64,000 nucleotides of DNA from contig CAJINV010000017.1 in NCBI GenBank assembly GCA_905178155.1, positions 1,108,722-1,172,721 of the forward strand, written 5' to 3'. This DNA comes from Amoebophrya sp. A120 (lineage: Eukaryota > Protista > Dinoflagellata). Below are positions 3,469 through 46,200 of this stretch, piece after piece; positions within the stretch are counted from its first letter, which is position 1; every line of letters starts with the position of its first letter. Both the position numbers and the translations under genes were made by a program. A model generated the notes under the pieces. The model did no database searches. It saw only the letters and a list, made by a program, of their open reading frames with translations, and was not told the DNA's origin.

Positions 3469-4702
3469 GAGACGCGACCCTTGGTACAGTAGGGACTTTT
3501 CCTGAAAACGGCAATGACTATCACTCGCATGGCAGATGTACAACTAGTAATTTTTGAAGGAAATACAAAGGATGTATATGATTTAATAGTTAGAACAAAT
3601 AGCCGTAGCGCAGCGTCAATTTTGAAAATTCATTTTCCCATGTCGCCACGACAAAGTATTGACGGCGAGACATGTGTGTAGGTGTATTTGATAGATAGGC
3701 GAACTACGTGTCCTTTGATAACAACAACGAAGAAATAGAAACAAGCTCAAGTAAGTAAATCATTTTCCATTGGAGCGCATCTCCATCTGTCGCCATGGTG
3801 TGGCGGCGCAAGAACTTCCGCATCGCTCCCATGCAAAACAAACGAGAAATGGAGCAACGATTTTGATTGTAAGGAAAAATCAAAGTAGCTGCAAAACCGA
3901 GGCGCAGAAGAAACAACAGGGATCTTCGTAAAAGCGAACGGATTTATTTTGCCTGTGGGGTGGAGGCGGTGGGTTTGCCCAACAGGAGTTGAGTCACCTC
4001 TTACGTCACAAATACCGATGCGAGTTTTTTTTTTCTGCGGGAAGGAGAGACGAGGAGTGCTGTCTCAAAAAGAGGTCGTCGAGCACGACGACAATGAAGA
4101 GAAAAGAGCCAGTGCATGGATGAAGATGAGAGAAGAAGTACGGAAGGGCTATCAATAGGCCCAATTTATTTGTTTCCTTGTCACCAGTGTCATCAGGTTT
4201 TTTTTTTTGCTGCTCCTTGTTCGTTCTTCAAGCGCGCACCTTTTTTTCCAATCTCCAGGTCGGAGCAGAGAGAACGAAAAGAGCCAGAATCAGAAAAGAT
4301 GAGATGCAGTAAGAATCTGCTCATCAAATACTTCGTCGAGGAAGCTGCATCATGAATGGAATGACGTTCTTTCCATTTTGACGAAAAGGAAAATATGAAA
4401 TTCCGGTAGTTAAGCTGGGTCAGAACAAACGGCATCATGCCTGATGGCTTGTTGTAATCAATATCAGATTACTTGAACAAGCAGAAGCAACAAGGAAGGA
4501 CCAAGAACGGAGAAAAGCGATCTGCCCTGCCTGCTAGGCAGCAAGTTACGTCTGGACCCAGCAGCTTCTAAGCAAGCCTGCGGAGACACGACGACACACA
4601 TAAAGCAGCTGATACTGCACCGCGCTCGTCCGTCTGTTTTTGCGAGAAACGAAAAAAACCGCTTTTGCAGGAGGAAAACCCACTGCTAGCGTGAACAAGA
4701 AG

Positions 4703-16700: not shown

Positions 16701-19700
16701 CGCCGCAAATCCGTCTACGCCGCCACGAGAACCACCAAAGGTTCAAGGGAAGCGAAGGTTGTCGTCGCGAAATCCACATCGCAGGTCCACCGCGCGGCTC
16801 CACATCGCAGCTCGCCAACGCCGATCCACATCGCCGCTCCACAGCTCCACATCGCAGATCCACAGTCGCTCGCTCCACCGCAAATCTCCGTTCACGCGGC
16901 GATGGGAACCGATGGGGGTTCAAAAAATTCCAACGCTGCGGTCGCGGCGTCCACATTCGCAAAATCCACAGTCGCATCTCCACATCGCAGCCCCGTCGGC
17001 ACTGAATTCGCGGCGCAGCCCGACGGCCCGATCCGGTGTGCTCGTCAGCACAAAGTTCAAACTACATTCTATTGCTGGCGTGATGTAGTAGCAGGCTATT
17101 TTACAGCGTATGCTAAGGCACGATTATCTTTTTCTATAGTAAACGCTACAGCCTCCCGAATTTCTATCCCGCCCGGGGAGGCGGCTTGCATAAAGCACTG
17201 CACGCATGCAACTGTCACACCGATCGCGCTTTTCTTTACTCTGTATAGTCGCACCGATATTACACATGCGCTTCTGGTTCATCACCGACTTTTCATTTGT
17301 ATGCTGTGATCTACACCGACAACGTTCTCACCGACTTGTGCATTCATGTCTTGCATCGTGTTTCATCAAAGTTTGTCATGGGCAACAAGTAGAACATTAT
17401 GTAGAAAAGATGGAAAAAAGCAGCAACTAGCTGGACGTCGACTCTATAACTAAGCTTTAACTTCCCCCCTCCTTCTGTAGATGGTTCTGCTTGAACTCAA
17501 GTAGAACATTTCTACAAAGGAGGAATTTTACATTTGCGTCAACATCTCACACATCCACCATAACAGAGTTGTTTTTGATATATTATACAGAAAAATTTTA
17601 CATATTATTTTTGATTAACAACTCTGTTCCCGCTCCTATTTACGTGTTGAGCTTTATTTATTATTCCCTCCACCACGTGTGAGACTGTTGGATATGGGCC
17701 TCCTGCCAGTAGGAACAGTGAGTTCTTTACGAAAACATTGAAGCCTACAAATATCATTAAGTCCCCGACAAAATGACTCACTGACTGACTTACTGGTCCA
17801 TACTTTTACTATTATGTACTTGTGGCAAGATGAAACTGTGCATTTTCGAAGTATAAAAAGTGCGAAACAATAAATCAATCAAAACCTAGCAAAAGTTGCT
17901 TGAGTAGTATCCTCTGGTCGATCAAACCGACGGTGATGAAGCAGCAAATATTGGTATGTAAAGTGCGACTATTGCAAACAACTTTCACGGCCAAAATTAT
18001 CCGTCCAACTACTCATCCTCATCATCGGATCCGCCCGCGACCGCGTTGTTGGCAATGGGGGCGTTCACGTTGGCCTGCGCACCACCCGGCACGTGCAACT
18101 GGAGGTTGATTCTGCGTCTCTGGGGCGCGGGCTGATTGGCGTTCGCACCGGCCGGGTCGGCACCGTTCGGGAACTGGCGGGTGATCTCACGCCAGAGCAA
18201 TTGCTTCTGGGCGGGAAAGAGAAAACTGAATGGCACCGTCATACTGTTGTAAGCCTGGGCGGACTCCTGGTACGATCCTGATATTATTTTTGGCATGATG
18301 TTGTAGATGCAGTTTCGCATAGTATTATGCTCATTTTTGCTTTGCATAAACCAATCTGTCTTGCATGCAGTAGGTCGTACTTCTAATTGCTTACAACCAA
18401 GAAATTTTCTGTGCGTATACCGTTCGCCAAAGCGATCCGCAACGGACCCTCCTCCAACTCCTGCATGCGGCGGACGAACTTCTCAAACGTCTCACTCAAC
18501 TTCTCCTGGATGGACGGGTACTCGGTGAACAGGCGCGCTTCCAAATCCTCCTTCATCGCTAACATGGTGTTGGCGCGGTCGGCATGCTCCTGGTGCGCAC
18601 CACCGGTGTAGCAGTTGCACATCTCGCGCATGATCTCGTGCAGGGAACGCCAGCGGTTGCGGGCGGGAAAGCGGATTCCACCCAAGAAGGCGAGCAAGTC
18701 GATCATCTCCTGCTGCGATCCGCGGTTGTCCCAGTCATGCAAGAAGTCAAAAGCGGTGCCAATGGCCAGGATGCGGTTGTCGAGGTCCCGCAGTTGCCCC
18801 TCCACGCGGGTCTGGTCCATGGTCAACAAGTAGCGGCGCAAGGCACCATTGTACTGCTGCGTGAAGTTGCCGGGCAATTTGGTGTAGTACAACGAGGTCG
18901 TGTTGGTGTAGGCGTCGTTCAAACCGATCAAAGTGGTGATGACCGGGTGCGGCTGGGGCAGGTTCATCCACTGGCGGATAGTGTTGACCATCTGACGCAT
19001 CAAGCCCTGGAGATTTGCATTGTAGAAATTACAGACGAAACTATACGACAATAAAGCTGGCACTTCAGTATCAAACTTGTTATGCAGGAAGATTCGTTTT
19101 TCTATCAACCAATAAAGTTCGCTCTCTCGGCTCGTGATAACTCTCAACTCAAGCAGCATGAAAAAGTAGTACCAAATCATGGATCTCCGGCTGGGGGGGC
19201 ACCTCTCCCTGCGCGCGCTTGATCGCTTTCGTCACCATCTCCTCAGCACAACGCGAAGTGTCGAGCGCGCGGGTCAAGTCAGCCTTGCTATGCTATGAAA
19301 AAAACCTTGGAGCAACACACTGTTTTCCTTTCAAAAGGTGCACGACGGGTGCACTCTTCGACTTTTTTATCACTTCTTCTTGCATTTCCTCCACTGTATT
19401 TTGACGTCCTGTTCTCTTGGTACTTTTACAGTGCAGTACTTTCTTTTTTTCAAGTCCCAACCACGCGAACTCATGAGCATAGCATGCAGAGTAAAATCTG
19501 AAAGAGAAAACAGTGCTTTGAGCCAAGGTTTTATCTTTGCATCGTCGTACACGGTGAACTGGGCGTTACCGGTGCGCAAGAAGGTGCCGAGCTGAATCTC
19601 CACCTGGACCAACAGTTCGGCCACGGCGGCAGCGCGGAGCATCTGATGTGGATTTGCAGTATGAAATGCAACATGCGTGCTCATCGTTTCAGGATATGTT

Positions 19701-22700
19701 TCTTATCAATATTGGATGCTTTGTTCGTCATCTGCGCTACACAGTAGTTCTGTCATGCATAGAAGCTAAAAACTTTGCTTCGTCAGTTTCCGACTACGCA
19801 ATACACGACTCAACCGATGAAACGCGCTCATTTTGCAAAAGGCACAACACTATATACGTCCATCGCCTTCTCCCAGAACAACTCCTGGAGCGTCTGTCCG
19901 CCGTTGACGGGGGCACCCTGCAGCAAATGGGTGGAGATGGCGTCTTCCAGCAAAGACACCTGCTGCAGCTCGATCGCATTGCTGATCATCATCATGTTCT
20001 CGCGGATCTCGGGCATGTTGTTGTTGCCGGACACGAACGCGCGGGCCTGCGCGTACGCCCTGTTTTTTATTGTCAGAATGATGTATCTCATGAAATTACA
20101 GTTGCGTTTTTCTGTGGCACTGAAGCATGATTTCAATGGACCGACGTAAGATTACGATGTGAACAGCATCACTTTATCAACAAAAACACACAAATATACC
20201 AGTCGCGAAACTGGACCAAGGTCCGGGGCTGGCGGGCCGCGGTCCGCTGGAAGGCACCACCCTGAAACAAAGCGATGATTCCCGCGCGCTCCACTTCATC
20301 ACGGGCTTCTGGGTGGCGCATTAAACCGCACAGACGATCGCACACGCCGAGAGCACGTAACCCGTTGGCCTCATCGGTCAGGGAGGCAAATCTCCCCTGG
20401 AGATGGACCTGAGTCGTGGTTCTTGGCCATGATTTCCACTTCAAATGGCAGTTTTGTCATGCAGAAATCCATACTTCACAAAAGCATCATGCGATTGTCA
20501 TGTCGGTCAAGTTTGTGATGCACAAGTTCCAAAATTGATGTAGTACTGCCACACGACGTTCTTGATCGAGCGTAGTATGATTGAAATCGGCCCTTCCCAA
20601 ACGGGCCGCTTCGCGGGCGATGATGTCGGTGCGCGTGAAGAGCACGATCTGACGCACCGCCGAGGGCAACGCGGCCATGGACCTGGCGATGACGGCTTCG
20701 TGGGCCAGTTCGAGGTTACCGATCTGGGCGTCAGTCAGGGTGGAAAGGTACTGGACGCGACTCAAAAATTATGCAAGTTGCAACTCTAGCTCAGCACCTC
20801 AGCCGCGTCATGCATGCCTGGCTACTTCAAAAATGCAAAAGCGCATGACAAACTCATATGATCAGATATGCTATTTCACAAGCATTAAGCACGTAGTCGC
20901 ACAGTTGGTCGAGACCAATTTGCATCATAGTTAGCATGACAAAGCAGTAGTGTAAGGTGCTGAGCTAGATATTGCTACCATAACAGACGGGTCCGCATGC
21001 GACCTTCCTGACGCCAGAGGGCACCCATGGCAGCGACATGATTCGCGTCTTGCTGTAGTGGTAATTTTTTTGAATTTACAGTATGTCTTTTTCACATCAA
21101 CAAGCGTCTGCTCATCCATGATAAAGGCATTCTATGCATGACAAGTTCAAAAATGTGTACCGGCAGAGCTGCGTTCTGCAGAAACTCCTGGGCGACCTCT
21201 CCAGTGGGGTGACGGGCCAATCTGTTTGCCATCTTGACACGCTTTTTTTTTCAAAGGAAGAACTCTCCACAAAGGAAGAACTCAAGAAGTAGTTGGCTAC
21301 GGGTTTTGTGTTGATGAAGATGATGAAAAGCAAGTATTAGATGGCGCGCGTCAGAAATTCAAAATTGTAAAATGAAAGTATCCAAACAACATCAAGATCA
21401 TCAAAGCAGCCGCCTTTTTTTCTTCACAATTACCACTGTCAAAGTGAGATCTCAGATCTATCCCATAACTTGAACTACAACAACAACAGTCATCTCATTC
21501 TAGGCACTGCAATGCGCTGCTTCATCTCTCACAAAAAAAAACAAAACAAAGAGCCGACTTATTTGATGATGTCAGCACGTTTTTACCAAGTACTATGTGT
21601 GCTGAAGCTTACGACACGACAACGCCATCATCGACGCCGAACTCACACAAAAAAAAACCTTGCTTTACTTCTGTATTGTGCGCGCAATTCTACCTCTATG
21701 ACATACTTGCATGCTGTGCTATATCAACTCGAGAAGTGCCTTCTTTTTTCATGTATGTTCCACTACTTGCATGTGCAGTCTGTCATGCTTCTTGTATGTC
21801 AATCCAGCGTACTCAATTTATGACATGCACTTCGAAGTCTACTAATTTGTCATGCTGTGTATCACAAAGCAGCAGTACTATGCTGCTTCAACTTCCCATG
21901 AAGAGTTGCGCTATGTCCCTATGTGTATGCATGATGCTACTACTGTGTGGTTTTACTGTCACGCACTACGTCCATCTACAGGTACACTGTTTGTATTACA
22001 AGCTATGTACTTTCACACGAAGTAAGGTCGTTCTACGCAGTTAAGATTGTACAAAGTTGTCAACGCTTCTGGCTTATATATAGGTCTTTTGCGCGATGCT
22101 AAAGTCTACAGCTGTTCCTATGTAATATTCAATTTGTGCACTATATTCTACTACTTGCAATGAAACTACTGTCAGGTACACCACTATTCTACACGGCTGG
22201 CCATCGGTAACTCGGACAAGAAGGCGAAGGTCATGGCGCAGATGGTCAACGCGTCATGGTGGTGATCTAGGGCTCGCAGGTATCCGTTCGCCCATGGTGA
22301 CCATCTCCGTTGCCGCATGACCGCGAGGGTGAAGTAGTCGTGGTGGGCCAAAGTTCGATGACCAGCCGTGAAGTTACTATATACTACTTTACTAAGCTTT
22401 TCTTGTTCTAGTAGTGCTCTTTTTGACACCTTCTACGCATTACAAATTGACGCTTTCTTGTCTACTTAAAGCTACATTTTCTGACATCCTTTAAAAATGA
22501 CGATTTTTCCTCACAAAAAGTGATCACTTTTCCTGCTCAAAAGTGAACTCGAAAAATGAGACGTTTTGCAAATTTGACCTCGAAAAAAAAGTCTTCTGAT
22601 TTTCTAGAAGGTGAACTCGAAAAAGTCTCGCGATAATGGAGAATATAAGTAGGACATGAGTCTTTTTTCTAGACTTTTTTTTTGACTATGCAGATGCAAA

Positions 22701-25700
22701 AGGTGACTTCGAGGAGGAAAAGCGAGAGACTTTTTTTTGTGCTCAAAAGTGATCATTTTTGAGCTCAAAAAGTGACCACTTTTTGTGAGGAATAATTGAG
22801 ATTTCCTTTGAGAGATGAATTGTACAATAAATCAATGCTTTTTGAACCTGAAACTGTGCAGAATATAAGTGTGTTCAACTACAACTTGAGGTGCCCGACC
22901 ACCTTCACTGGGCCGGCACTTGGGACGCCGATTCTGCGAGCACGTCATGCTGTTTACCCGCACCTGCAGCAGCCATCTTTGGCTGCTTTTTGGTCTTGGC
23001 CTTGATCCTCTGCTTCTCCACAAGGACATCGGCGATTTCCAGGTATTCTGCGTCGATCTTCTGGAAATCCAACCACGACGTAGTCGACTTTCCGGGCGAG
23101 AGGTACTTGTAGGTCTGGTCAGAAATGTGCATCAGAGCGTCGAACTCCTTCTGCCTGGTAGCGTCCTTTCCAGCACGTTCGGCGGCAAAAGCACGGATCT
23201 CCGAGGTGTAGGCGGCGTACTGGGACTTCAAAACCTCCAAATCATCTTCGGTGGACTGCGGTTCGTACTTGCTGTTGGAGCTGGCTTTTTCGCAGATGAA
23301 ACGGCACATCACGGCCCACCCGTTTAGGAGGCACTCGACCCAAAGGGGTCCCTCTTTCTCGCCAAACACCATGCTCCTCATGGGCCTCTTCGTCGACTGG
23401 CACTTCATGTCCAGGTAGGGGTGGACGAGGAGCTTTTTCATGTTGTTCGCCAGCTTGGTGTCCACGCACTTCATGCTCAGTCGGACAGCATCTCTTCCGG
23501 TTCTCTTGCGGTCAAACACCGTCGACGCTTCGATGCATTTCCACCCTTCGACTCTCGTTGCGAAGAGACGATTAGCAACCTTCTGTCGCTCCAGCTGATG
23601 CAGTGCGTATTCCTTGCTCGAGAGGTGCATCTTCGCCGTCGCAGAAAGGGCAGTCATGCCCTGCGTTTCCACCTGCGTTGAAGCCTGCGTTTGCGGTTCC
23701 TCCACGACGATCTTGTTCGTCTTTCGCCACGTTTCCGCATGGACGTCATCCGACTGTAGTGGCATTGCTACCATCTTGTTGTCGTCCAGAACCCAGATCT
23801 TGTCGGTCGATTTCGGCGCGGTCAAAGCCAGCATCGTAGGCTGCAGAAACTTCTCCAAGTTGTCCTGCATTTGGGCTTTCTCGCTATTGCTAGCGGAGGC
23901 CCACCCTTCCCTGAGCACCTTGTCCTCCTCCTTTCCCGCCTTGGTCCGCTGCTGCCGGTACGACAGGTTGATCCGTTCTCCACAGAACAAGCACGCTTTG
24001 CTTCTGCCGTCCTTTACGTCGACTTTCATCGTGTACATCGGCCCGAGTGTATCCCGTGAAAAGCATTGAAGCTGCAAGCCAAGCATTACTACTATGCATT
24101 AGATATTTGCATGAAATATGTAAAGGTTTTGCGCACAAGAAATCAAATTTTGTAATGCAAAAATCAACATTTGTGATGCTTGTCATGTAGCTTCAATGTT
24201 TTGGTTGCATACATCGTATCCAGGTCGTATTCGGTGCCGCGGTCGTCGGAGTACAAGTTTATCCAGGTCATTCGCATCCTGCACTGCCACCACTCCTTTC
24301 CCGGATCTTTCTGCAGTGCTAATTGCACCGCTTTGAACGATGATGGAGACAGCACCACGTCTGAAATGAGGAACGTGTGCATTTCCCCCGACGGACGGTG
24401 CTTGTACTGCGTTATGAAGAATGGCGACAATAACGACGACACGTCGTGCACCCCCTGCAGTACCGGCATCGCGATGTTGTCGTCTTCCCCAACTTCGTCT
24501 GCGTCTTCTACCAGCAGTTCGTCGTCGACTATCGATCGCAACAATCTTATCCTGCGAAGAAGGCCAAAGTTTTTGTATGCAAGCATGCGAAGCTTTCTGT
24601 TTCTTCGCAGGATAAGATTGTTGCGTTTCGATAGCATCATCATCCGGCTCGGCGAGGTTCAGGTGAGCTAGATCACCGGGTTCGATTCCAGCAGCCTTCT
24701 TCTCTTGTCGCAGCGATTTCAGCTTACCGCGCTTCGCCCGGATGAAACGCGATATCAGCACAGCAGAAGCCGGTTTAACTTTCGCCCGCACCGTCACCTC
24801 CGGCGGCTTTTCCACTGTAATCAGCTGGTTGGTTCTGTTGCACATAGCGGGTGCAAGTTTTCGATAGTCGCCGTCTTTTGTCAAGTACTTTTGCAGCACT
24901 CGTTCCTGCACCCCTTCGTAGTACAGTTTCTCGCGGTTCACGACAGCAAATTCCCGGACTTCTTCCTCCTCTTCTTCGCTTTCTTCGGCATCCTCATACT
25001 TCAGCTCCGCCGCTAGTAGCTCCTTCTTCTTATCCATTTCCGCTGCGATGATGGTGTATTTCGCTTTTTCGTCGTCGTCCTTCCAGGAATTCAATTTGTG
25101 ACACTTTTCTAGCACGTCCGCCGCTGTCATCTTCACGTCTTCTTCACCGTCCTCCCACTGGTCTTCCCGTTTCGCATCTATCGGTCGTGTGCAGGCGTAG
25201 TGCCGTTTCGCTGCGGGTTCGCCGGTATCGTCGTCTTCTTGATCCGGTAGCAAGTACGGCCGGCATTCCTCTTCCACCACCGAAGCCATGTTTTGCCAGT
25301 CCTTTCTGTTTAGCTGCGCGTCCGGTCGTATGCGTTGAAAATATGTAAAATAGCCTCCTGCAAGTAAAAATCAAAACTGAAAAAGCACTGCAGTTTGCAT
25401 GCAAAAAGTTACGTTCTCATCATGTCGTTGCACAGATTCGTCATGCCTTATGTAGTATGTGGTGCCTTTTCAGAAAAAAACCTGTAATGCAAGAAAGCTA
25501 TGCTACACATTTTCACTTCATAACTCCGGGGATACTCTTGGTTCCAGTCTTGCACCGCTTCGCATGCCACTTGTAACGTCCACCCCGTTTTTCGCAGTTT
25601 TTGGTGCTGCGGTTGGCAACTTCGAGGCATTCGGTGAGGGATTTCATCTTCGCTTCGCGGATGTTCTGCGGCAGATTCCGCATATACCGCTGTACAGAGT

Positions 25701-28700
25701 GAAGCGATATCGACCCGGGATCCCCTTGCGTGTACACGTCGAACTTGCACTTGTCCAACTGCTCCATGGCCTTCTTCAGGTCGACCCGCGCGTTCCCCAA
25801 CCATGTCTCATGCAGATCGCACTGCCCGTCGCGATAGAGAAGAATACAGCGGGAGATGATGAGGACGTGTTGTGCATTTATCCGCGCCAGCTCTATCTGT
25901 TTTGCATTTTAATTCTAAATATGCATTTCAACAGTCCTCGTGTCATGCTGGAAAATGTGCATGACAAAATGGAAAGGTTGTTTTATTCTATACCAGTTCA
26001 AGTTGCGCATCCGAAAGCGTCACACTTCCGATCCCGATGCCGCACATCAAAAACGCCAGATCATCCAGCACTGCCTGTTTGTCGCTGAAGTAGTTGTACG
26101 TGCTGACGAGATCCTCCCGAAAGGTTTGCTTCAATGCCGCCCGTCCTTTTTCCCGAACATTGCTCCGCAGCGTGCTACCATTATAACGCTCGATGGGGCG
26201 TATCAAGTGAAGCAAAAACCAACTCGTCACCAGGAAGAGGAATTGCGTTCCTGATTTTGTTATGAGTTGAAGATGTAAGTTTGTCATGCTGGATTGGCAA
26301 AAATGCATGATTTTTGCATGAGAAAAAATGTGCATTTGCATGCTTTTCTACCATGCACTTTGTGGAACCGTCGATGCATGGCAATACTATGTATTTGTAG
26401 CACCTGTCTTGTTGCGCATGTCCACCGTAAAACCATGCTCCAAGATTTTCTCTTGGCCGAAAGAAATTCTTTCGCCCAGTCCCGTAAAAATTCTTCCTAG
26501 GAAGAACGCGGTCGCCAGGGAGAGCTGCGTCAGACACGACATCACCGTCAGCCATCGTGTCCAGACCGGACATTTGAAGCCGCGGTACAGACAATGCAGC
26601 GCTCGCATGCATTGATGCTTGCTGTTTCGCGGGATGACGAGCAACTTCTGCCGCACACTGCAGTCCCGGAAGAAGTCTTTTTTTTTCGTGTCCATCGGTA
26701 GGCGGTCCAAGAAAGCACACAGCTTCTCGTCTTTGGGTGGTTTCTCTCCTTTGTCCCACGGAGCGAGCCATTGCTCCACCTGGTCGAGGCCGTTGTGGAT
26801 CTTCTCCTGCAGCAGCTTGATGCTGTGAACCTGGATGATAAATATAGAAAACAATGTTGATGCGCATAATATTTCATTTGTCATGCGGAACGTCATAAAA
26901 TTTGTCATGCAGAAACGAAGCAAATACTGCGTGGCTATACCTGTAACCAAAGCCTTTTTTGCCAACCAACCGGGTCGAGGTTCATCGTCCCCAGGTATAG
27001 CTCCGCAACCTGCTTCGTAACAAGGGCGGTTTGATGGACTTTACAGCGTTGCGTCCAAAGTACAACGTCGGACAAGTACTTGGACGCCATGAACAGGCCC
27101 CCGACATAAAACAATGTCGGGATTGTACTACCGCCGGAGTCCGTAACCGGCGACCATACTTTGATGGTGTTCTGCGACCAGTTACTGAAAAAAACTTCCG
27201 GCGAGTGATACGTCCATAACTGGTCTGCCACCTCAAAAGCTTCACTGTACCCCCGGAATGCTGATTTTTGGTTTTGTTGTCGTGGTCCAAAATCGTAGCT
27301 CGATGGGTACATCACAGTATGTGATGGCAGGAAGACGGAGCCCATTTTGTCGATGTTGCCACAGCAAAAAGTTATTGCCACCATGCTGATCATGACGTGG
27401 GCAAACACTTTTATTTTTCCGCGAATGCTATTCTCGAATAGCATGTTTTGGCACGTAGTGCCATCTATTTCGACTCGATAATGTACGAGGGAAAGCCTGC
27501 TGCTGTCGTTGAAGTAGGTCTGGCTGAACTCGAAACACGTCTCGACCAGCAGTGCGGCTAGTTTCCACAACTTCCTCGGAGCGAGGTACGACTGCGAGTT
27601 GAAAAAGGCCGCGCGCTCCTCCTGTTTTTCGTTCTGTTTCGCCGCCGCATCTTCTTCTTGCTTTTTTGTCTTCGGCGCCTGGTTCTTCTTCACCATTTTC
27701 CTACTCCGTGTTGTTACGCCGAAAAACTGGTGCGGAAACACAAACGACGGCGGAAGAACAGGACCGCGCCAGTAGATGCGGATGCAGTTGTTATTATATA
27801 GCTTTACTTAGATGGGATTGCGTGCTAGCAAATTAATTATTTTATCTTAGGTATGTGGGTATTGCTTAGTTTAAAAAAAAAACCTGCCTGCTAGTAGGAG
27901 AATAGAATATGCATTTTGTATTTCCAAAAAAAAATACTTGCGTTTCCCCGTTCTCGTGCTGGCACTCTTCCGCAGCCCTTCCCTCCTGATAGCGCAGCCA
28001 AAAAATCTCTCAGCCTTCTCTTCTCACACAAAAAAGCAGCTCGTTTGGTATTTCGAAAAAAACGTCGCTTCTTGCATGACAAAAAAATTACCGAACACTG
28101 CCTGCAATTATTGCAGATGTAGTTGCAGTTCGCAGCCGCTTCTCGGCGCAAGATGTTACTCGCAGCGACACTGCGAGCGCTTTTGTTTTGTGTGTATCTC
28201 CCACCGCCCGGTCGCGCTACCACTTTCCTACCGCTGCCTCTTCTACCCGCGCCGACTGCTTGCCCGGTTCTATTCTGCAGAGGAAAGATCTTGTTGCTAT
28301 TCACGCGAACGCGAACAGGTGCAGAATCGTTTCCCTTTTTTACAAAATAGCCGACTATACACAAGCCCGCTACAGTTAGAAAGGAAAATCGATAAGCTCT
28401 TTTGCCGTACTACATGATCGTCGTGCTATGCATTTCGAAATGCATAGCACGATGATCATCGACAAAAGACTTTTCGTTTTTCTCTTCAGCCTTCGAAGTA
28501 GCAGCTCTGTAAAAGTCCTCCGCTGTGTGCAGCTGTATCTCAAAACCGAATACACGAGGGTCGACGGTATTATTTGGCTGCGAAAGTTCGCAGCCAAATA
28601 ATCGAGTAACAGCTGCACGTTGATCAGTACTATTTTATTTGCGCCGCACATCCGCGTATGGATTGTTGTGTGTCGTGATTACTCATCGACACACAAGAAT

Positions 28701-31700
28701 CCAAACCTGGGCGCTATGCTACGAAAATAGTACTGATCGCATCGCGGAAAAAAAACTTGTCGCCGAGAATCGAACCGGCGATCGCAAAAAGGGTGAAAAG
28801 GGACTGAGACAAACAACTCGGCCCCTTACCCGCTCGGCCAAACGGCCGAGCGGACTGCATCGGTCATCGACCTCGGAGACCCTATCACAGCCCAATACGG
28901 GCTGTGTACGTTGTCGACATTTTTGATCATGCGTTTCCGCATGATAAACTGCTTTGAGCGACACGACGACAGCCAAGTCGTCTGTCGCGATAGAAGTATA
29001 GTGCCGGGTTTCGAACCCGACCTCGCGAAGGGTGAAAAGGGACTGAGACAAACAACTCGGCCCCTTAACCGCTCGGCCAAACGGCCGAGCGGACTGCATC
29101 GGTCATCGACCGCGGAGACCCTATCACAGCCCAAAACGGGCTGTGTACATTGTCGACAAATTTGAAAATGCGTTTCCGCATGATAAACTGCTTAGAGCGA
29201 AACGACGACAGACAAGTCGTATGTCGCGATAGAAGTATAGAGACGGGTTTCGAACCCGACGCTATCGACGGCCAAAAGGAACTGACGGAAGCAGCTAGAT
29301 CGCTATTCCGCATGGTATGGTGGAGGATCGACAAGTCGAATGACCACCATACCATGCGGAATAGCATCGATGCAGCATACCATGCAGTTTCGACCAAAAA
29401 AATGAGATGAGAAGGCGAAACCGCTATAGAAATGCACCTAACGACGTGAATAGCAACTTTGTTTCCAATGCAAAGTAGACCGTTTTTTTCCAAAATTTTT
29501 CAAAAAAAAAAAATCTCAAAAAATTGAGAGAAAATCAGATGACTTTTTTCATCTGAGGCGCCCAGCTCAACAAATGTTCCTGCCATCGCGCATTTGCATG
29601 ACAAACTCTGGGGAGGTGGGGGCGTTTTTAGACAGGATACGAGAAGAAGAAGCAGGTCATGGACTTCTTCGACCTAAAGAAGTGGATCGAGGGCTTCAAG
29701 AAAAAGAAGGCCGCGTACCAGGACAAGATTGACGCGATTCAGGACCGCATAACCCAGGCCTTCGCGACGGCGGAGAAACTCCGCCAGATGGCGGAGGCGC
29801 GCGCAAAGGCGGCGGAGGAGGCCGAGAAGAAGAAGCTGGAGCAGGGTTTGGTCGAGGAGGGGGAAACGGAGGACGAAATGGAGACGGTGTTCATCGGGAA
29901 AGTGAACGAATCCCCGGCGAAGAAGCCGCTCCTCTCCACGACCGCCGGCGCGGGCGACGTGGAGATGACAGCGTTCGGGTCTGACAAACCCCTCCCCAGC
30001 GCACGCAGACAAAAATTCGACTCCGTGGAGAGCTCAAATTCCGCCCCTCCGCTGACCGCTAGAACCGTGGAAAAACTCGCGGCGAGCGAGAAGTCGAAGT
30101 GGGACGACATGCTGGTGAAGTCTGCTGGCGATGTCGGCGCCGCACCTACCGCCGATTCAGTAGACAGCATCACCGCGCCCACGAAAAAGTCCGAGGTGGT
30201 GGTGATTCCGGGCGCGAAAGCACTGGTCGAGGTGCAGGCCGTCACCGGGTTGTCGCAGCAGGGCCCGTTCGTTACGCTCGGGAAGCTGGTCCGCGCGATT
30301 TTGAAAACGATCACCTACCCCTTCGTGGTTCTGCTCAGCCGGGAACAGTTGTCCGCCCTGATCAAATCCGTCGCGGCGGTGTTCGGAACCCTGGGCGTCA
30401 TGTACGCGCTATTCAGCACCGATTCGACGTTTTCCATGGTGTTCATCCTGGCGATCACCGGGGTCGTCGCAAAAGCAATCTTCGACGCGGGCGCGCGCGC
30501 GGCCACGCCCAGCGAGGCGGAGAAGGAGGAGCAGAAGCTGCAGCAAAAAGCGAAAGCGCTGCAGGAGCGAGCGCAACTGGAGGCGAAGAAGGTAACCTCC
30601 ATCCACACCAAATCGGTCCTGAAGGACGACGGGTTAAACGCGAAAGACCACGTGGTGTCCGCGTTGGAAGCGTGCGAGGCGGTGGACGCGGCCTGGGCCA
30701 AGGGCGAGCACACCTTCGTGAAAATGCCGCCGGCGATGATAAAAACCCAGAAGCGGGTGGTGCCCGACGTGAACCGCGGCTGGTTTGAACTGAAATTGAA
30801 CCACTTCGCGGCGGGAAAGCAGCCGGACGCGCAGGAGATCGGAACCAGCCTGAACAGCGACGACATGTTCACCATGAAGGATTACGTCTTTGACGTGTGC
30901 GACATCATCGTGGACACGTTAGGTTTGCGATTGCCTTCGGACGTAAAGCCGGTCAGACACACCAAGACGCTCACGAAAAAACTGCTGCAGGTACTAGAAT
31001 TGATTCACTGCTAGTATCGGATGAAATTGTTGAATGATCAGCATGATGGTAACAGGATCACTGCGGGGGCAAACCTGGTCCTGAAATGATGATGCTATGC
31101 GAATGCAACAAAAATTCGCCAGAAAAAAAATAAAAAGATAAACTCAAACACAGGTTAACAAGCCTCTCGGAACTACCCGTGACCTTGTTCAGTCCTTTCC
31201 GATCCAGATTTCCGTCGAGACGCTCCGGGGCGAAGCGGAGAAGAACAACAAGCAAACGCAGGTCGCGTGCACTCTATCAACTGTAAAAATGTCTGGGTCT
31301 GGAAGAATTCATGTTTGTCATGCTTGTCTGGCATGGCTCTTAAATCTGTCATGCACGTTACCCAAGAGCTCTGCTTTTCTGTGATGCAGGAGCGCAGTTT
31401 GTCATGCAGAATAGGCAACACCTAGGAGCTCAGAAACTTGTCATGCTGAGCCAGCATCTGTAGCTTCATCATGAGACGCCACCCAGCATCACAAGTTTCC
31501 AGACCCAGACATTTTTACTTTTGATACACCCTGCAGATTGTGAATTTCGTGGGGAAGGGGCAAGCGGACCGGGCCGATAACGACAGCTACTTGACTATCA
31601 TTTGTAAAAACGTCCCCACCCCAGAGTTGTGATGCAGATTTGCAATGACAGGAACATTTGTAATGCGCATCGACATGAGAGGCGTTTCTAGTCGAGTTTT

Positions 31701-34700
31701 GGCATTTGTAATGCTGTAACCAGGATGAGCAGGTAGATTTGTGGTGCGTTTTTCCTTGCTAGCCTGCACTATACTAGGGACTGCATCTTGTGATGCGTGA
31801 GTCCCAAAACTTCTGGGTTTGTGTTGCAAAATTTCCATCTTGACTCTGCTGTGGGGACGTTTTTACAAATGATATTGACCCTGACCGACCAGAAAACGAT
31901 CGGCGCGAAGAAGGGCGCGGGCGTGAACATTGACACGTACAAGGTCGGCGACGACATTATTTTCAACGACTTGAAGAAGGGCGACCTGTTCGAAATCGTC
32001 CAGGACGAAGAGGGGGAGGAAGTGACGCGCATCCCGAAGTTGGCCGACCAGGGCGCCTGGCAGAAGGCCACGGACGGACAGAAGCTCACGAGCGCCGACA
32101 TCGTCTACGAAGACCAGGAGCCGTTTGAAATCGCCGAAGACGGCGGCCCGGATTCGCCAACGGGAAGTACTCCAGGCACCGAAATAAACGCCCTCGTACG
32201 CAATTGCCGCTGTCTAGCACTACAGGCGGACCCTCCCCCATACATCACTTCAGTCAAACGTCAGGCGGGCTCTAGGGCCTTCGTGGTCGTAGTGCCTGGG
32301 AGATTCACACTCGCTCCGGAGCCGGCGCCACGCCCTGGGCGACAAAGCAAAAGCGCTTTGCCGACGGCTCGCCCCGAAAATAACTTGTGCCGGGGCGCAG
32401 TGTCGCAATGATTATTTTTCGCGCATTCTCCAGGGGTGAGAAACGCCCCGCGTCGGCTTTTGGATTCGGCGCCCCCCACATTGAAGTTTCGCGCCTTTTC
32501 GTGCTATGCGCTGCCAGGCCAGGTGCGGCCACGCCGGCGACTTCTCTGCCGTGGTGCATAAGTAATAAATAATCTGCCTTCTTTTGCGTACGAGCGTTGG
32601 CGAGGCGATTCCGCACGCGGGCCGCTGCTGCAGCGCGGCCTGCCCGGCTGACCTCTTTGTGCGTGGGATTCTTTCTCGACTTGGTCTTGCACGGCCATAC
32701 TAGCGAGGGGTAATGGAATCAGGCGCGTTGTTTGTTCGTGGGCTGGAACCGCGGGCGCTTCGTCTTGCGACGGCGCCGCCTTCGTGGTAATTGTGCAATC
32801 CCTTCCACCGTTGGTTTTCAACGCATAAGCATGATCAGCGTGCGTGCCGATCGTTGTTTTGCGTGTTTTCCCCCTCTTGCGCGGGCGGTGCAGCAAAGGA
32901 AGTCTCCAAAGCCCAAGCCGGCGGAACGCGGGTAGGCCTGCACCGACCCCACCGCCTGCGTTGCGTAGTGCGATGGGGAGAGCCCGAAGCGCTCACACTT
33001 TTCGCAGAGAATCGCCTTAGGAAGCGCGCTGGCCTGGCAGGAAAGATGGAAGCGCGGGGGCGCCGCTTGTTCCATCTTGCTTGCCTTGAAAAAAGGCTCG
33101 GGGATGTTTGGTTCTTCCCTGGCTTTGTTGTCGTTGCCCTTTCTTTCTGCGGCCGGGGCATTGGTAGGTTGCAAAAAAGCGCAGGCATGGCCCAGTTGTC
33201 CGGAAAGGAGGCAAACCGTTCACCATTGCCCCGCATCGATCGGGCGGGCCAGGCACCGCGGGCGTTGCCAGCCTCTCACGGTTGGACGGCGGGGCGGGGC
33301 GTAGCTCTCTATGGGCGTTGGCATTCATGTTTCATCTTGTTTGTCTTGCTAGACAGGTCGTGTAGCTGCTTATTCCGTACGAGGGCGTTTATTTCGGTAT
33401 ATCGAGTACCATGCGCGGCGGCGGGGCCCGGTTTGAAATCGCGGAGGACGGCGGCCCGGATTCGCCAATAGGAAGTACCATCCGCGGCGGGGCCGGCACG
33501 ATGATGAACAACTACGTGGAGGGCCAACACAGCGCCGCGCCAAAGTCCCCGCTGCGGGGCAAGAATTCGACCGATTCGCTCGACGGCGCGGTCGCGATGG
33601 AGATTTCGAAATGGCGGAAGCCGGCGCTGCTGGAGCTGCGGCCGGACGACTTGGAGAAATCAAACAGCAGGGCGACGATCTACGAAATTGAGAACACCTA
33701 CGGGAACTACGCGCACGTGCCGAGGGAGCTCCGCGGCACGCCGCTGCCGCAGAAGCTGGTGCGGTTCAAGGTGCGGAACGACGACGGCGAGAAATTCTCC
33801 TTTGCGCCCGTGAAGCCCGGGGCGGGGCAGGGGCTGTTGTGCAAGCAGGAGGGGGAGCTGAGTTTGGAGGAGCAGAAAGCGAGGAAGTGCGCGGATTGGT
33901 TCAACGCAGTGGACGGCTGGTTCGAAGATTTGGGCGCGAGCAGCAACCTGCGGTCCAACGTGCACGCGGTCTTCGACGAGCTGTTTTGGGGCAAGGACAC
34001 CATGACGCAGGGCGGCCGACCGGCGGACGTGAACAGTGAGCGGAAGAAGTTCAAGAAGGGCGAGCGCAAAGACCTCCCGAACCAGCAGAAGGGGCTTTTG
34101 GCGCGCGTGTTGGAGCGGAAGGACGCGGGGTTGACGGTCAAGGAGTATTTTGACTATTTGATGTACGGCGCAGAGGACGATAACGAGTGGCCGGGCTTCA
34201 TCTACTGGTTCCGCTTCAAGCCGAAGGGCGAGCAGGAAGTGGAGCAATTGAACAAAAACCCGAAATTTCGCTACGGTGCGGTCGTGCCGCCCGGCCCGAT
34301 CGTGGGGGCGCTGGCCAAGCCGGCGCTGACGCCGCAGGTGCTCCACGTGGTGCTCACCGACGCGGATCTGAGGGCCCCGGGCGACGTGGTCGACGCCTGG
34401 CAGCCGCAGCGGGGAGAGCCCCACACCGCGGAGATGTTCAAGCTGGACAAGGAGGGCTACAGTCGCGGCGTCGTGGGTCTGCTGAAGCTGCTCCCCGACA
34501 AGTTGCAGTTTGAACAGCCGGTGGGCGACGGCGAGGTGGATGCGGAAACGCTGGCCGACACCTTGAATTTCGATTTTTCCGACACCTACGCAATGTTCCC
34601 GGTGGTCAAGGACGTTTTCAAGATCAACCCCAAGATTATCCAAGACAGCATTTTCATATACATCACACAGCCCACTACCACTTTGATCGCGTTGCTGCAA

Positions 34701-37700
34701 AGTGACATTTTACAACATGCAGCAGCAATTGTATAAAGCAGAGTCCTGCTCTGATTCAAAAGAACTTGCCGAAGACCAAGTGTGTAGTTAACTGTGATGG
34801 TGATAGATGATTCTTTCCTCCATAGCCACCGGGGTGGAGGAACTGACAGTGACCGGAAAAACGTTGTACTTGCAGATGAAGGGCGGCGACATCATCGCGT
34901 TCGGGATGGACCAGAAGAATATCAACTGCAAATATGTCTGGGTCTGGACGAGGGATGCGAACTTGTGATGCTGCGTCTGGATTCTGCAAAAATCTGTATT
35001 ACATGAAGAGCAAAAGAGGTCCACTTTTTGCCATTGCGAGAGGGTATTCGTATTTCGCATGCGGTATAGAAGGCATCAGAAATCCCTCACAAAATCTGTG
35101 ATGCTAGGGCATGCATCACAGACATCAGGACTCATGATGCAAAGTGTGCATCACAAGCCTTGCATCCTTCCAGACCCAGGCATTATATTTGCGATGCATA
35201 AAGAAGATCGAGATGTGGGCGGACTTGATCGAGAAGTACCAGATGTCGACGCCGCAGCAGTTTATCCTCGGGTACGACGGCAACGTGTCCGAACACCCGG
35301 AAGACCCAAATCTGCAGATTCGGGAGGGCAAGCAGGGCTACCAGAAGTTCTACCTGAAATCGAACTGCCCGGGCGTGGGGTACGTGCCGAAGTCGCGGTA
35401 CTGCGGGTCCTGGAAAAACCACAAGTACCACGGCGACGGGATGTTCTACAAGCTCCAGGTCGCGGAGAAGTGTCCGCACGTGGCGCTGTACCCCGGTTCA
35501 AACAACCCGTTGGGGCACAAGATGAAGGACGTGTTCCTGCTGAACGACCGCGAGCACCTGCACCACTCCAAGGCAAACTACGAGCGGCAGGTGATTATGT
35601 ACGACGGGAACTTCGAGAACGGGCTGCGGTGCGGCAAGGGCATGGCGTTTTTTCCCATTCCGACCGCGAAGGGAAAGCTCCTGTACCGGTTCAACGGGGT
35701 GTGGTGCAAGGACCGACCGGTGTTGGGGGAACTGATGTACGTGTCCGGCCCGATCGAGCAGGGCTCGCTACCGCAAGAAATAATGGGGTTGCAGTTTGAG
35801 ACGATTGATGCTGTAACTTCAGCTCACACAATGAATTTACTCTGCAGATGAAAACTTGCAAACCACCAAAGATCATCTGATCATCAAGGAAATAAAAACG
35901 TATGAAACCGCGCTCCTATGTTGCATATTCGGCACGGTAGAACTTGCCTGTGTTGCAGCTTGCAACAGGAGCAACGCAATGTGTGACTGTAACACCTCCT
36001 TTTCCTCCGCATACCCACCCACGATGAAGTACTACTTTGGCACGGTGGTCCCCTTGAACGCGGGGAAGAAGACCGGGGACGGCAAGGCGGAGGAATTTTT
36101 GAAAACGCGGCTGATGGACATATCGCCCTTCGAAGTGTACGCCGCCGCCTGCCTGTCCTGCGGGTCGAACGGCATGTCCCCCTCCCAGGTGCTGTACCAG
36201 CTGAAGAAGGACTACGCCGCGCTGATCTCCATCAAGTCCAAGAAGCTCGAAAAGTTGGCGGAAATGACGGAGCCGCTGAACGCAAAAATCGAGGAGACCA
36301 GGAGAACCTACGGCTACTACGACGAGCCCCTGAGCGACTTCGATACCTACATCCTGTCGCGCTGCCTGGAGCCGTTGAAAAAAATGCCGAACATCAAGAA
36401 TCTGATGGAACCAGATGGCAAGGACTACTTCCGCGACGGGCTCAACATCAACGATTACAAGTTCACGCAAAAGCTCAACGTGCGGGATTTATCCAAGGAG
36501 AATAAAGTGTGTCAGTGTAACTAACTTGTGTATTCACTTTGAAGGAACAGGCAGTAAAAATTTCTCATGCATGATCAGCATGACAGACGCAAACGCAATC
36601 GCCTCCTGCACGTAGTTGCGCATCACAGAGCTACACTGGCAGTCTTGTTTTCGTGGATACGATTTTCACTGCGACGAGTACATCCGAGACGACCTGGACG
36701 TTTTGTACAAAAAATGGTTCAAATATGAGTGCTATGCATCACAAAAACATCGCACTTGGCTGTAGAATGCATTTTTACAAATTTCATTTTTTTCAAATGA
36801 TAGACAGCGACTCAGTGTCAGCGAAATATGCAAAAATTATCTTCTGTCATGCAATTTCAAATGAAATTCAATTTCTAGCTCTACACTTGTTGCGATATGC
36901 AGTCCCTTATTTCCTTGGGATAAGTGCTATGATGACGAAGATCAGAACAGCAAGCAGTCCGGAACGATCTACGCCGTGGACGCGGATGACAAGACCAAGT
37001 GGGATTCGTACAAAAAAGGGCTGGCCTCCCTGGCGGAGGACTGGAACAAGTTCCAAAAAGAAATTGCTTTCGAGGACGCCATTATGTTGATGGAGATGGG
37101 CCGCAAGAAAAAGCCCAAGTGGATGAGCAGCCTGCAACAGAAGTCCTTCTGTGAGGACTTGTTGCTCCAGTGCCTCCCGGCAAAGGAGGTCGCTCCGGCC
37201 TGGTATTCGCAAGTCTCGGGATACGAAAACAAAAAATTGCCACGCGGCACGAGAAGGCTGTTGTCGGTAAAAAAATATTTGCATGTGCATGGAGTACGCT
37301 ACTTAATTCAAACGCATTTACCACCTACTTTACTTCATCGCCTCCGACTAGGTACAAATTGAAGCTTCGAAAAAAAAATTTTTTGGGGCAATCCACCTAT
37401 TTATCGTGTAGCACTTTTCGTTTTCATACGGCAGAGGTTTACGCGGAGGAGCACGCCGAGATGAAGGAGGTCTTCCGATCCCTGAGTCGCAAGCTTTCCG
37501 CAATTTTCCCCACCGCACCAGCTTTCAGTGAGGAGCTCTGGGAAAAGATGCCCAAGGTTTCCAAAACGGTCACAGAGAAGAAATATGCTTAGCAAGAGTG
37601 TCGCATTGCTCGCTACATTATAGATCATGACCTTTCACTTATACGTGACGCAGCACCACAATAAATTTCATTTCATTTCCTTCGGAAAATCATGAAAAAA

Positions 37701-43265: not shown

Positions 43266-46200
43266 ATGATGTCCGAGGAACCCGAGGCGGAGCAGGACGT
43301 TCTCTCCTTTTCGGAGCGCGTCCTGAAGCAGAGCCAGCACGCGCAGGCCCACTGTCTGAAAAAAGCCGCCGAGTACCGCCAGGACCCAACTAGGCTGCTC
43401 CTTGATTTAACGGCTCTACGAGAGACGGTGCTCTCGACCAAGGTTCCGGGAAGCCAAACGGGTGTCCGGGCGCTGGTGAGAGGCTGTGAAGCCCTTCGGA
43501 GATCACAAGTTGCAAGGTATGTCGAGGAGAATTACTTGCTACAACCCGGTCCGGCTGCTCTTCAACAAGGAAACAGCAGCGGTACGAGCGAAGAGGTAAA
43601 TGCTCAACTGCAGCACAATCAGGACGCAGGTGGACCGCAGTTCCTTTACGACAACCCAGCACAACATGCTGAAGAAGGAACACCAGCAGATCCCAGCAAC
43701 TTCACGATTCGCGAACTACTTCTGAAGTTCAGAAGAGCACTCCTCACGTTCTACCACTTTCTCGCGACGCGCCTCACACCGGTACAGCGAAGCGGGCTGC
43801 GATTGGTTTTCGCGTTTTGGATTTTCACGTGGCTGCTGCAGAGACGGTGGAGAAGGCTGCGAAATGCTTCGGAAATTACACGAACTGGAGCTACAACTTC
43901 TATTAAAGCCAAGAAAAATTATTTTTCTAGCGAACTGAATTCCACAAAATCAAAATCCCTCGCATCGTCCGGAGCAGTGGCTCAGCTCATTGGCCTCTCA
44001 ACCTTGATGCATGACATCAAGGAGGGCAGGATTGAGAAAGTCGAGTTTCTCGGACCTTCCTCAGTCATTGCGCAGTACAACGATAGTATAAGCGTAGTTG
44101 ACTACGGAAGCACTGCAGGAGGTCGGGGCGTAGCTGGCGAAACGGGTAGTGGTGAAAGAGGATCAGGAGGACGGACGATGAAAAATCAATTGTCACCACC
44201 AGGCCACCACAAGACCTACGTCCCAGCACCATCACCAAGCAACAAGTTTGCGCAGGCGGTGTTAGCCCCGGGCTCCCGGGAAGCGTTTTTCGCTTTGGTG
44301 CGGGAGCACGTGCCGCAGTTTGCTGTCGGCGAGGTGCCGCCGGAAAAGCTGGCGACGCGGTTTTTTCGAGGGTTGCTGCAGCTCGCGGTCCCGTCCGCGT
44401 TCCTGGCTGTTTGGTACCAGCTGCTAAAGTCGATCATCGATAAGAAAGAGGACTACGATCCCTCGAAGCAAAACCGGAGACAGTCGAACTTGGGGAATCC
44501 AAAGGACCGGCAAGTGAAGCTATCCGACATCACGCTGCCACACGCGGTGAAACAGGAATTGTTTGAAGTGGTGGACCTTTTGAATCACCCGGAAAAGTAC
44601 CGCCACCACGGTGTGGTTCCCTTTCGCGGCGTTCTCCTGACCGGCCCGTCAGGAACCGGGAAGACGATTATCACAAGAGAAGCATACTACTGTTCTTCTC
44701 TGTATAGAAATTTGTGATGGCGAGGAGGCAACTAGCTACACAGATCATGAAAAAGTGTGTCACTACACGAGGCAAGACAGAGCATTTTTCGTCCATCTTG
44801 TGCTGTAGTTTTTTCTTCGGAAGCACGCAATGCAAGTTTCCTTTGTCGCGGAGTGGTTGTAGAGTAGCAGTTGTGACGCAATCGCAAGCCCAAGCCCCCT
44901 TCCACAAAAGTGATATGAAGGAGGGAACAGCCATTTTTTTTTTCCTCCCGATAACGATGGTGGCCCGGGCAGTGGCTTACGAAGCGGAGGCCGCGTTTCT
45001 TTCCTGTGTCGGGTCGGAACTGATCGAGCTCTACGTTGGCCGCGGGGCAGCAAGGGTGCGGGCGATTTTCGCGAAGGCGCGACAGCTCGCTTGTGCCGCG
45101 AGTGGTCCTGGTTGCGGAACGATAAGGAACGGGAAGAGGTGGAATTTCGGGAGCGGGACGTCGAGGAATAGAAGCAATTGTACTTCGTCTGCGCCGCCTA
45201 TTACGCATTGCAAAACCAAAAGCAGAGTCAACGTACTAAATCATCTTAATTGCATTCACTACGTGTTGTATAGAAAAATTTGTGAAGCTGCAGCTGGTTT
45301 AGAAACTACAAGGGAAGCAGTACCACAAGACAGAACGACGTACTTCAGATGCAATATTGAGATAGGGGCTAGAAAGATGAATGCACGAACTGCGCGAGAC
45401 TTCTGCAGTGGATACCTGCTACTCCCCTCCAACACTTTCTTCGGGCCGCAGCGGGCAGCGTCGGCGCGTCGAAATACTTTAGCATAAAGGCAGGGACGAG
45501 CCGCCAGCATGTGGAAAGTACCTCGTCCTGCGTGCTATTTTTCGACGAGATCGATGCGGTCGGGGCCAGGACTGGGTCGTCCAGTCGGATCGGCAGCAGC
45601 GGTCCGCACGACGAGGTGATTCAGACGGTGAATCAGTTGCTGCATGAACTGGACGGCTTCGGATGTTCCGCGTCCGACGACCGCGTGTTGGTGCTCGGCG
45701 CCACGAACCGGTACGAGGCTTTGGACAGTGCGCTGCTCCGCCCGGGCAGGTTCGACCGCCAGATCTTTTTGCGGTTGCCAACCGCAAAGGAGCGGGGTCT
45801 GATTCTGGAAAATCTACTCAGGAAAAAGCCGGTCTTGCTGTTTCCGGAGCTTGGCGAGACATTGGAAACGCTGTGCGCCGACGAAGTGATGGGAAATACG
45901 AGCAGCGGCGTCTGCTTCTCTATGAAATTGGAAAGGGAATGTTGATCATGTTGTGAATGTATAGTCATGTGGTCACGCAATACTGGGATGGTGAAAACGA
46001 AAAGGTGAAAATATAAATGAATTCATTTCTGTCATGCACGCGACAGACACGCTGAAATACTCCTCGCTGCGGGTTACTGATGTCCTCTTAGTTTGCACTG
46101 TAATTGTATCTCAAAACGACATCACAATTAGACTTTTCCAAGTCACATTCTCCGGAGCGGACGTTGCCCACATCGTCATGGAGGCTGTCTACAACAGTCT

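Follow-up and report, generated by a model that had tools for sequence, protein, structure and literature searches.

A tandem hairpin-rich repeat with tRNA-like A and B boxes near one end of a putative Mutator-like transposon in Amoebophrya sp. A120

The 64,000 nucleotides of Amoebophrya sp. A120 analysed here (the window) contain a cleanly bounded, apparently recent DNA transposon, and 0.3 kb inside its right end lies a tandem repeat of hairpins, which carries tRNA-like A and B boxes and ends at a run of eight T (T8) on the strand of the element's large gene (Table 1). This repeat may be read as a hairpin-rich non-coding module acting as a type-2 promoter/terminator cassette of RNA polymerase III (Pol III), i.e., as a docking site for TFIIIC and Pol III directed toward the predicted transposase gene. 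It is the reading that we prefer, tentatively and with somewhat less than even confidence. Judged by its motifs, the cassette resembles, but is not, a tRNA gene or the head of a short interspersed element (SINE).

Tandem Repeats Finder describes the repeat with a period of 239, 2.0 copies, 93% matches, zero indels and a score of 846, which confirms the pair of stem-loop copies with 239-bp period reported in the initial annotation; a second repeat search of the same region yielded two 233-nt copies of 94% identity. Following unit B, a diverged 24-nt beginning of a third unit continues as far as T8. Units A and B exhibit 19 differences over 239 positions. At 13 of these 19 positions it is unit A that has T (minus strand).

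The stem-loops are short within the units (stems of only 8-11 bp) and largely consecutive. The hairpin ccgctcggcc-aaac-ggccgagcgg is situated at 28830-28853 and 29069-29092, cacagccc...gggctgtg occurs in each unit, and cgggtttcgaacccg is found at both unit borders. All stem-loops named in the initial annotation are thus present, but not all of them in both copies, as the minus-strand hairpin atcatgcg-GAAA-cgcatgat is intact at 28926-28945 only and broken by two changes in the other unit. The better hairpins are kept by unit B. On both strands the repeat folds far beyond chance, with -233.1 kcal/mol (z -9.6) on the minus strand and -229.6 kcal/mol (z -10.25) on the plus strand, and in neither case was any of 100 shuffles as good. 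Perfect hairpins (stem >=9) cluster in this part of the window, 15 of the 32 hits falling within 28-30 kb, where nested registers were counted singly, each as its own hit. Further long hairpins and palindromes flank the repeat; microRNA-model matches on the first of them, a near-perfect palindrome of 46 nt, scored 32 bits, where the gathering score is 60, and were set aside as generic hairpin matches.

Concerning the boxes, the A-box motif TGGCCGAGCGG(T/G)TAAGG has two matches on the minus strand of the window (0.17 expected), and the B-box consensus GGTTCGANNCC has three matches in the window (0.51 expected), two of which are inside the repeat. Read along the minus strand, the array begins with a B box that has no A box upstream and passes through about 140 nt of small hairpins to the A box of unit A, a gap of 51 nt (62 nt from start to start) and the second B box; the spacer then occurs again, followed by the A box of unit B with one change, the variant B box GGTTCGATTCT, six bases and T8. 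The sequence of variant B box, six bases and T8 has the layout of the 3' end of a tRNA gene. If a Pol III type-2 promoter is taken to be an A-box and a B-box consensus on one strand at a distance of 30-60 nt, such a pair (TGGCCGAGCGG and GGTTCGAAACC, 51 nt apart) is present twice, with the second B box one base off. The A box resembling a tRNA D-loop about 50 nt ahead of a B box, as initially annotated, is therewith recovered in two units. Of the three B boxes proposed at 239-241 bp spacing, the last of them followed by T8, the spacing (239 and 241), the T-run and two exact boxes hold, whereas the third box deviates by one base.

The 17-mer TGGCCGAGCGGTTAAGG, which contains the A box of unit A, is found exactly in 107 stretches of a collection of viral contigs. 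The first 60 of these loci were checked with ARAGORN: 55 have a tRNA (30 Ser, 20 Met(CAU), 5 Leu), with the 17-mer beginning at position 8 or 9 of the tRNA, and five are without a tRNA. Because 55 of the 60 examined loci place the 17-mer in the D-arm position of a called tRNA, its tRNA resemblance is not due to chance. When the two window units are aligned with eight Ser/Leu tRNAs of the viral contigs, no D-arm column varies and GGTTC.A of the T-loop is conserved; in the anticodon and variable parts the units do not resemble the tRNAs, which they exceed by 11 columns. The 17-mer is a tRNA signature, and the boxes of the repeat are tRNA-derived. An inverted copy of the D-arm serves as its pairing partner (CCGCTCGGCC-GTTT-GGCCGAGCGG), and the segment next to it forms a stem with the 3' side of the D-loop (10 pairs and one mismatch). 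A search of metagenome contigs with a 21-mer of the D-arm hairpin gave, among the matches listed, only two unrelated GC-rich bacterial hairpins.

The transposon in which the repeat is housed spans 15723-29569 (13,847 bp). These bounds, as well as a target-site duplication of 9 bp, are established because the 9-mer ACAAATGTT flanks the insert twice and stands only once (31653-31661) in the empty site, a paralogous introner copy that reads ...GCGCATT-ACAAATGTT-CCTG... without interruption. The terminal inverted repeats (TIRs) are imperfect and around 82 bp long, and both long TIRs and a target duplication of about 9 bp are found in MuDR/Mutator-like elements. TIRs, duplication and empty site together define the element at whose end the initial annotation had placed the repeat. 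A 4-bp AAAT duplication combined with a Ginger-like TGT terminus had also been considered, and was displaced by the 9-bp duplication after the empty site was found. In one DNA run, contigs inside the element exhibit 4-16 differences each, the two flanking contigs none, and the summed depth amounts to 35-87 inside the element vs 25-33 outside, a depth being a hint and not a copy number. Differences and depth are compatible with at least one further, slightly different, recent copy of the element. Its left part contains, at 16562-16860, periodic repeats of 13-21 bp (CTCCACATCGC...) inside overlapping low-complexity open reading frames (ORFs) on both strands.

Within the element, the repeat is situated 309-780 bp from the right end, on the strand of the large gene and around 1 kb upstream of it. 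A 16-mer close to the start of this gene recurs in identical, inverted form near the left end and may constitute a promoter-type signal shared by convergent genes. A T10/A10 run is found near each copy, adjacent on the left and about 45 nt off on the right. TIR and 16-mer are separated by 240 nt at the left end but by 1658 nt at the right one; the hairpin chain and its tRNA-like array are thus an addition confined to one end. The repeat region matches nothing else in the window except for one 17-nt match (E 0.005), which is taken as chance; a self-targeting hairpin RNA was dropped from consideration, since this chance-level match is the only one elsewhere in the window.

Spliced RNA contigs from two runs connect 15486 with 29640, so that the element is itself enclosed in an intron (14.15 kb) of a host gene on the plus strand. 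Introners of Amoebophrya, in the sections of Farhat et al. (2021; PMC7789003) that treat them, have non-canonical borders with a direct repeat of 3-5 nt and inverted intron ends. Only the host intron exhibits this layout: CGAGA is found at each border, and the intron ends are inverted. The 13.8-kb element was inserted separately and has TIRs of its own as well as a duplication of 9 bp; the tRNA-like repeat does not belong to the introner. A U12-type intron was rejected as an interpretation, as the start ATATCCT is explained by the inverted end of the introner. A second non-canonical host intron (31274-31874) belongs to one introner family with 15487-29639, the ends of both being TATC..TGTAAAAA../..TTTTTAC/GA..GATA; the introns at 14170-14489 and 30988-31150 are ordinary GT..AG introns. 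In the DNA run, the introner family reaches summed depths of 1.8e3 to 2.7e5 vs about 30 for unique sequence, to be read as a hint at high copy and not as a copy number. With the large gene on the minus strand and the host gene on the plus strand, the antisense arrangement described in the initial annotation is supported.

Concerning the RNA data, three raw RNA-seq runs that share the species label had 0 reads on 27000-31000, host exon included, and are therefore no test of expression. The RNA contig runs X3, X4 and X6 cover the host exons and have nothing at about 15.9-28.5 kb, contigs being unable to show small RNAs; the depths of 0.12 (X4) and 0.23 (X6) in the bin 28582-29215 count neither for nor against expression.

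The gene toward which the repeat points is predicted to encode a transposase. A search of 1.84 billion representatives with its minus-strand ORF 26935-27807 yielded nine relatives at E<=1e-3, of which the best has 44% identity; those that are named are all Amoebophrya proteins, and the rest are a few metagenome or other unnamed records. The minus-strand ORFs between 27114 and 22941 run collinearly with one relative of 1115 aa and therefore form one large multi-exon gene; a shorter relative carries the match up to 27750. When used as a query, the 1115-aa relative (P0011) returned only itself; the element's protein found no relative in the viral contigs and nothing meaningful in sequence searches of PDB, and two ORFs had no match in the Atlas search. 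A second run of minus-strand ORFs (18009-20151) is situated downstream of the large gene within the element, and a 282-aa piece of it (ORF 18386-19231) found no homologue in a word-index search.

The N-terminal domain exhibits, in eight aligned sequences, the motifs DGT(T/S), TDSGGS and W..RC..HQ, i.e., the order D, D, CxxH, which the passages on catalytic motifs in Kojima and Jurka (2013; PMC3706591) give as common to hAT, Kolobok, P, MuDR and IS256 transposases. An AlphaFold model of low quality (pLDDT 51) has the strand and helix order b1-b2-b3-a-b4-a-b5-a, as in an RNase H-like core, with the two D motifs after strands 1 and 4. The best Foldseek rows comprise RNase H1, integrase cores, RuvC and NurA, but also chains of a ribosomal protein, an NTPDase and a glucokinase (best E 1.2e-3), and the third catalytic residue was not located in the large protein. 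It is by its motif pattern and a weak fold that the protein is predicted to be a transposase. The repeat does point, on the minus strand, toward this large gene, as had been claimed; what did not bear up is a recognised transposase family, as no ORF of the element and none of the nine homologues has a Pfam match of useful score, MULE/Transposase_mut included. Given the 9-bp duplication and the long TIRs, a divergent Mutator-like element is the best fit, short of an established membership, and the large protein is a candidate for an undescribed transposase family.

In the mechanism proposed here, the element would have taken up a fragment of tRNA-gene DNA (tDNA), as Mutator-like elements do with host DNA, inverted duplications would have reshaped the captured tDNA into hairpins, and the 239-bp piece would afterwards have been duplicated once. 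Provided that TFIIIC still binds to its A and B boxes, two results are conceivable: short Pol III transcripts in the form of hairpin RNAs, terminated by the T4/T5 runs or by T8, or else a boundary occupied by TFIIIC, which would shield the promoter of the element within the transcribed host intron. The full scenario, in which a Mutator-like transposon of a parasitic dinoflagellate carries its own tDNA-derived Pol III/TFIIIC cassette that makes short hairpin RNAs or serves as a chromatin or read-through barrier upstream of the transposase gene, and in which this transposase represents an undescribed family, is on the unlikely side in our estimation.

Several observations argue for a cassette. 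A and B boxes lie on one strand, in order, with a 51-nt gap in two consecutive units, and the array finishes with a tRNA-like 3' end and T8. Acceptor and anticodon parts have been lost, the intact boxes have not. Such an uneven loss is typical of tRNA-derived Pol III promoters, e.g., of SINE heads and extra TFIIIC (ETC) sites. Furthermore, the module is inside the element, shares its strand with the large gene and is an asymmetric extra at one end; its folds have z values of -9.6 and -10.25.

Other observations weigh against it. The function in Pol III transcription or TFIIIC binding is proposed from motifs only. Both strands fold equally well with similar numbers of G-U pairs, so that no RNA strand is marked; the folds exhibiting no strand bias, palindromes acting at the level of DNA therefore fit as well. 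Compensatory changes are not found among the 19 differences between the units, several of which break stems of unit A. Since the duplication the boxes have changed at 1 of 28 positions, compared with 19 of 239 overall, which is indistinguishable from neutral drift. The third B box, with its deviating base and a loop of 8 nt, is outside the matches of the consensus search. Finally, the T4-T5 runs noted within the units in the initial annotation do exist (T4 at 29035-29038 and 28796-28799, T5 at 28786-28790 in the last unit); they are situated between A and B boxes and could end Pol III transcription after about 50-60 nt.

Almost as likely as a working cassette, and second in rank, is a passive relic: Part of a host tRNA gene, or of a small tRNA cluster, would have been captured by the transposon together with its terminator and scrambled by inverted and tandem duplications, and would be without function, its boxes being intact through recency. 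We regard this as a serious possibility, although below an even chance. Capture of host DNA is described as common in Mutator-like elements, as far as the consulted parts of that literature go; the divergence of the units looks neutral and breaks stems, neither acceptor stem nor anticodon arm is present, T4/T5 runs interrupt the space between the boxes, and the module is found at one element end only. However, uniform decay should not spare 17 of 17 positions in the D-arm and 11 of 11 in the B boxes beside an unrecognisable middle, and both the orientation of the boxes and their site just upstream of the element's gene would have to be coincidence.

Third after these two, and clearly improbable in our view, the repeat could be cis-acting DNA of the transposon, i.e., subterminal protein-binding or cruciform sites, or else the transposase gene's promoter or leader. 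The tRNA likeness would then be only a historical trace. The subterminal position at 309-780 bp from the end would suit this function, the palindromes fold alike on both strands, and the abstract of PMC3310237 describes transposase-binding sites and promoters in the long TIRs and subterminal regions of Mutator-like elements. Yet the left end is without matching sequences except for the TIR and the one 16-mer, the hairpins share no short motif, and the region has no counterpart elsewhere in the window beyond the single chance-level match of 17 nt.

The suggestion of a SINE head in the initial annotation was not upheld. One or two tRNA-derived SINEs, inserted independently of the transposon, would account for the tRNA-like head with A and B boxes; but the summed contig depth of the DNA run is 80.9 in the repeat bin (51-58 in neighbouring bins) vs 1,773 to 267,050 in the introner bins, where depth is no copy number, the sense strand finishes in T8 and not in an A-rich tail, and no target duplication of its own flanks the repeat. 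With no high-copy signal in the DNA run and no A-tail the repeat is not a SINE, and such an insertion is very improbable. Least probable of all, with next to no weight, are unusual real tRNA genes, e.g., intron-bearing or permuted ones, to which the exact or nearly exact D-arm and T-arm might point: ARAGORN finds 0 tRNA genes in the whole window, the Infernal/Rfam check suggested at the outset gave no family or tRNA at the gathering threshold and no tRNA even at E<=10 on 1401, 126 and 121 bases, and a 7-bp acceptor stem is missing, as GGCCGTT before the D-arm cannot pair with ACTATAC or GACAAGT after the T-arms. The repeat is not a tRNA gene.

Among known systems, SINE heads and TFIIIC-only ETC/tDNA boundary sites come close to the module: Their A and B boxes are likewise ordered and spaced as in a tRNA, and a working cloverleaf is absent; SINE heads, moreover, are also housed in a mobile element. 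The module differs from them in that it is situated inside a cut-and-paste DNA transposon, exhibits no sign of high copy and no A-tail, and is a tandem duplicate woven into perfect hairpins. In the tRNA-microRNA-encoded RNAs (TMERs) of murine gammaherpesvirus 68, a tRNA-like unit is combined with hairpins and transcribed by Pol III. As the repeat would do if its boxes act as promoters, they place tandem tRNA-like Pol III promoter units, hairpins and a T-run in a parasitic genome; however, their tRNA-like parts fold as cloverleaves and their hairpins have the size of pre-miRNAs, whereas the repeat is without a cloverleaf and its unit stems measure 8-11 bp.

With MuDR/Mutator-like elements (MULEs) and Pack-MULEs, for which the consulted sources describe host DNA captured between TIRs, the element shares the 9-bp target duplication, the long TIRs, the D...D...CxxH pattern and, if its tRNA-like pieces were taken up from the host, internal host DNA. 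It differs from MuDR/MULEs in having no Pfam MULE/Transposase_mut match and relatives only in Amoebophrya and a few metagenome or unnamed records. In the excerpts of the literature that our search returned, no report of a MULE or another TIR transposon with a tDNA-type cassette was found. Dada transposons, according to the parts of Kojima and Jurka (2013; PMC3706591) devoted to them, insert in tRNA and snRNA genes, have 6-7-bp duplications and no TIRs, and include members in the alveolate Perkinsus. They are likewise DNA transposons of the C/DxxH group associated with tRNA gene sequence, but the element studied here carries its tRNA-like DNA internally, has an introner as its target, and possesses a 9-bp duplication and TIRs of around 82 bp.

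Table 1. Features of the window discussed in the text (positions in the window; strand left empty where none applies)
Feature	Position	Strand	Basis or remark
Left TIR (GAGCTGGGCGCGCTCAGATGG...)	15723-15804		Inverted-repeat search
Right TIR (...CATCTGAGGCGCCCAGCTCA)	29488-29569		Inverted-repeat search
Left 9-bp target-site duplication ACAAATGTT	15714-15722		Comparison with empty site
Right 9-bp target-site duplication ACAAATGTT	29570-29578		Comparison with empty site
Non-canonical host intron (introner) enclosing the element	15487-29639	+	Borders share CGAGA; inverted ends TATCCTG.../...CAGGATA
16-mer GCTAGCACGCAATCCC, inverted, near left end	16045-16060	+	Element-end comparison; identical to the following
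16-mer GCTAGCACGCAATCCC, about 65 nt upstream of large gene	27814-27829	-	Possible promoter-type motif
Large multi-exon gene of the element, predicted DDE transposase	22941-27750	-	Collinear with 1115-aa protein of Amoebophrya sp. A25
Tandem repeat	28789-29260	-	Unit A 29262-29024, unit B 29023-28785 (minus-strand register)
B box GGTTCGAAACC, T-arm-like hairpin, orphan (no A box upstream)	29246-29256	-	Motif search
A box/tRNA D-arm 17-mer TGGCCGAGCGGTTAAGG, unit A	29063-29079	-	First 10 nt are 3' arm of perfect hairpin 29069-29092
B box GGTTCGAAACC, T-arm-like hairpin (5-6 bp stem, 7-nt loop)	29007-29017	-	51 nt past A box of unit A
A box/D-arm 17-mer with one change (GGGTAAGG), unit B	28824-28840	-	Hairpin with 28830-28853
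Variant B box GGTTCGATTCT	28766-28776	-	Other stem (TCGCCGG/TCGGCGA), 8-nt loop; then GACAAG, T8
T8 run, Pol III terminator-like	28748-28755	-	T-run search
Near-perfect palindrome, 46 nt, first of the flanking long hairpins	28414-28459		Hairpin search
Other flanking long hairpins/palindromes	28569-28602, 28621-28739, 29298-29368		Hairpin search
Host gene, PAN Pfam match, weak	4613-5209	+	22.2 bits
Host gene, MORN Pfam match, weak	35138-35848	+	23.9 bits
Host gene, AAA ATPase Pfam match	43266-47623	+	69 bits

Apart from the element and its host gene, the window contains further host genes on the plus strand (Table 1). A second cluster of inverted repeats and palindromes, in its upstream part (8069-8869 and 12046-12219), probably represents further introner or miniature inverted-repeat transposable element (MITE) copies.

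The published analysis of Amoebophrya genomes mentions two putative transposases for one strain but not a single one for the other, and leaves the spread of introners unexplained (PMC7789003). The large protein is a concrete candidate transposase family for Amoebophrya, though the element and the introner are unlike in their ends and in duplication length. Should the cassette be active, a DNA transposon lying antisense in a transcribed host intron would borrow the tRNA promoter system to insulate or to arm itself, a strategy that to our knowledge is otherwise found only in retroelements and viruses. If this holds true, the element would be a cut-and-paste transposon equipped with a Pol III gene of its own, a mobile-element counterpart of the tRNA-hairpin units of herpesviruses.

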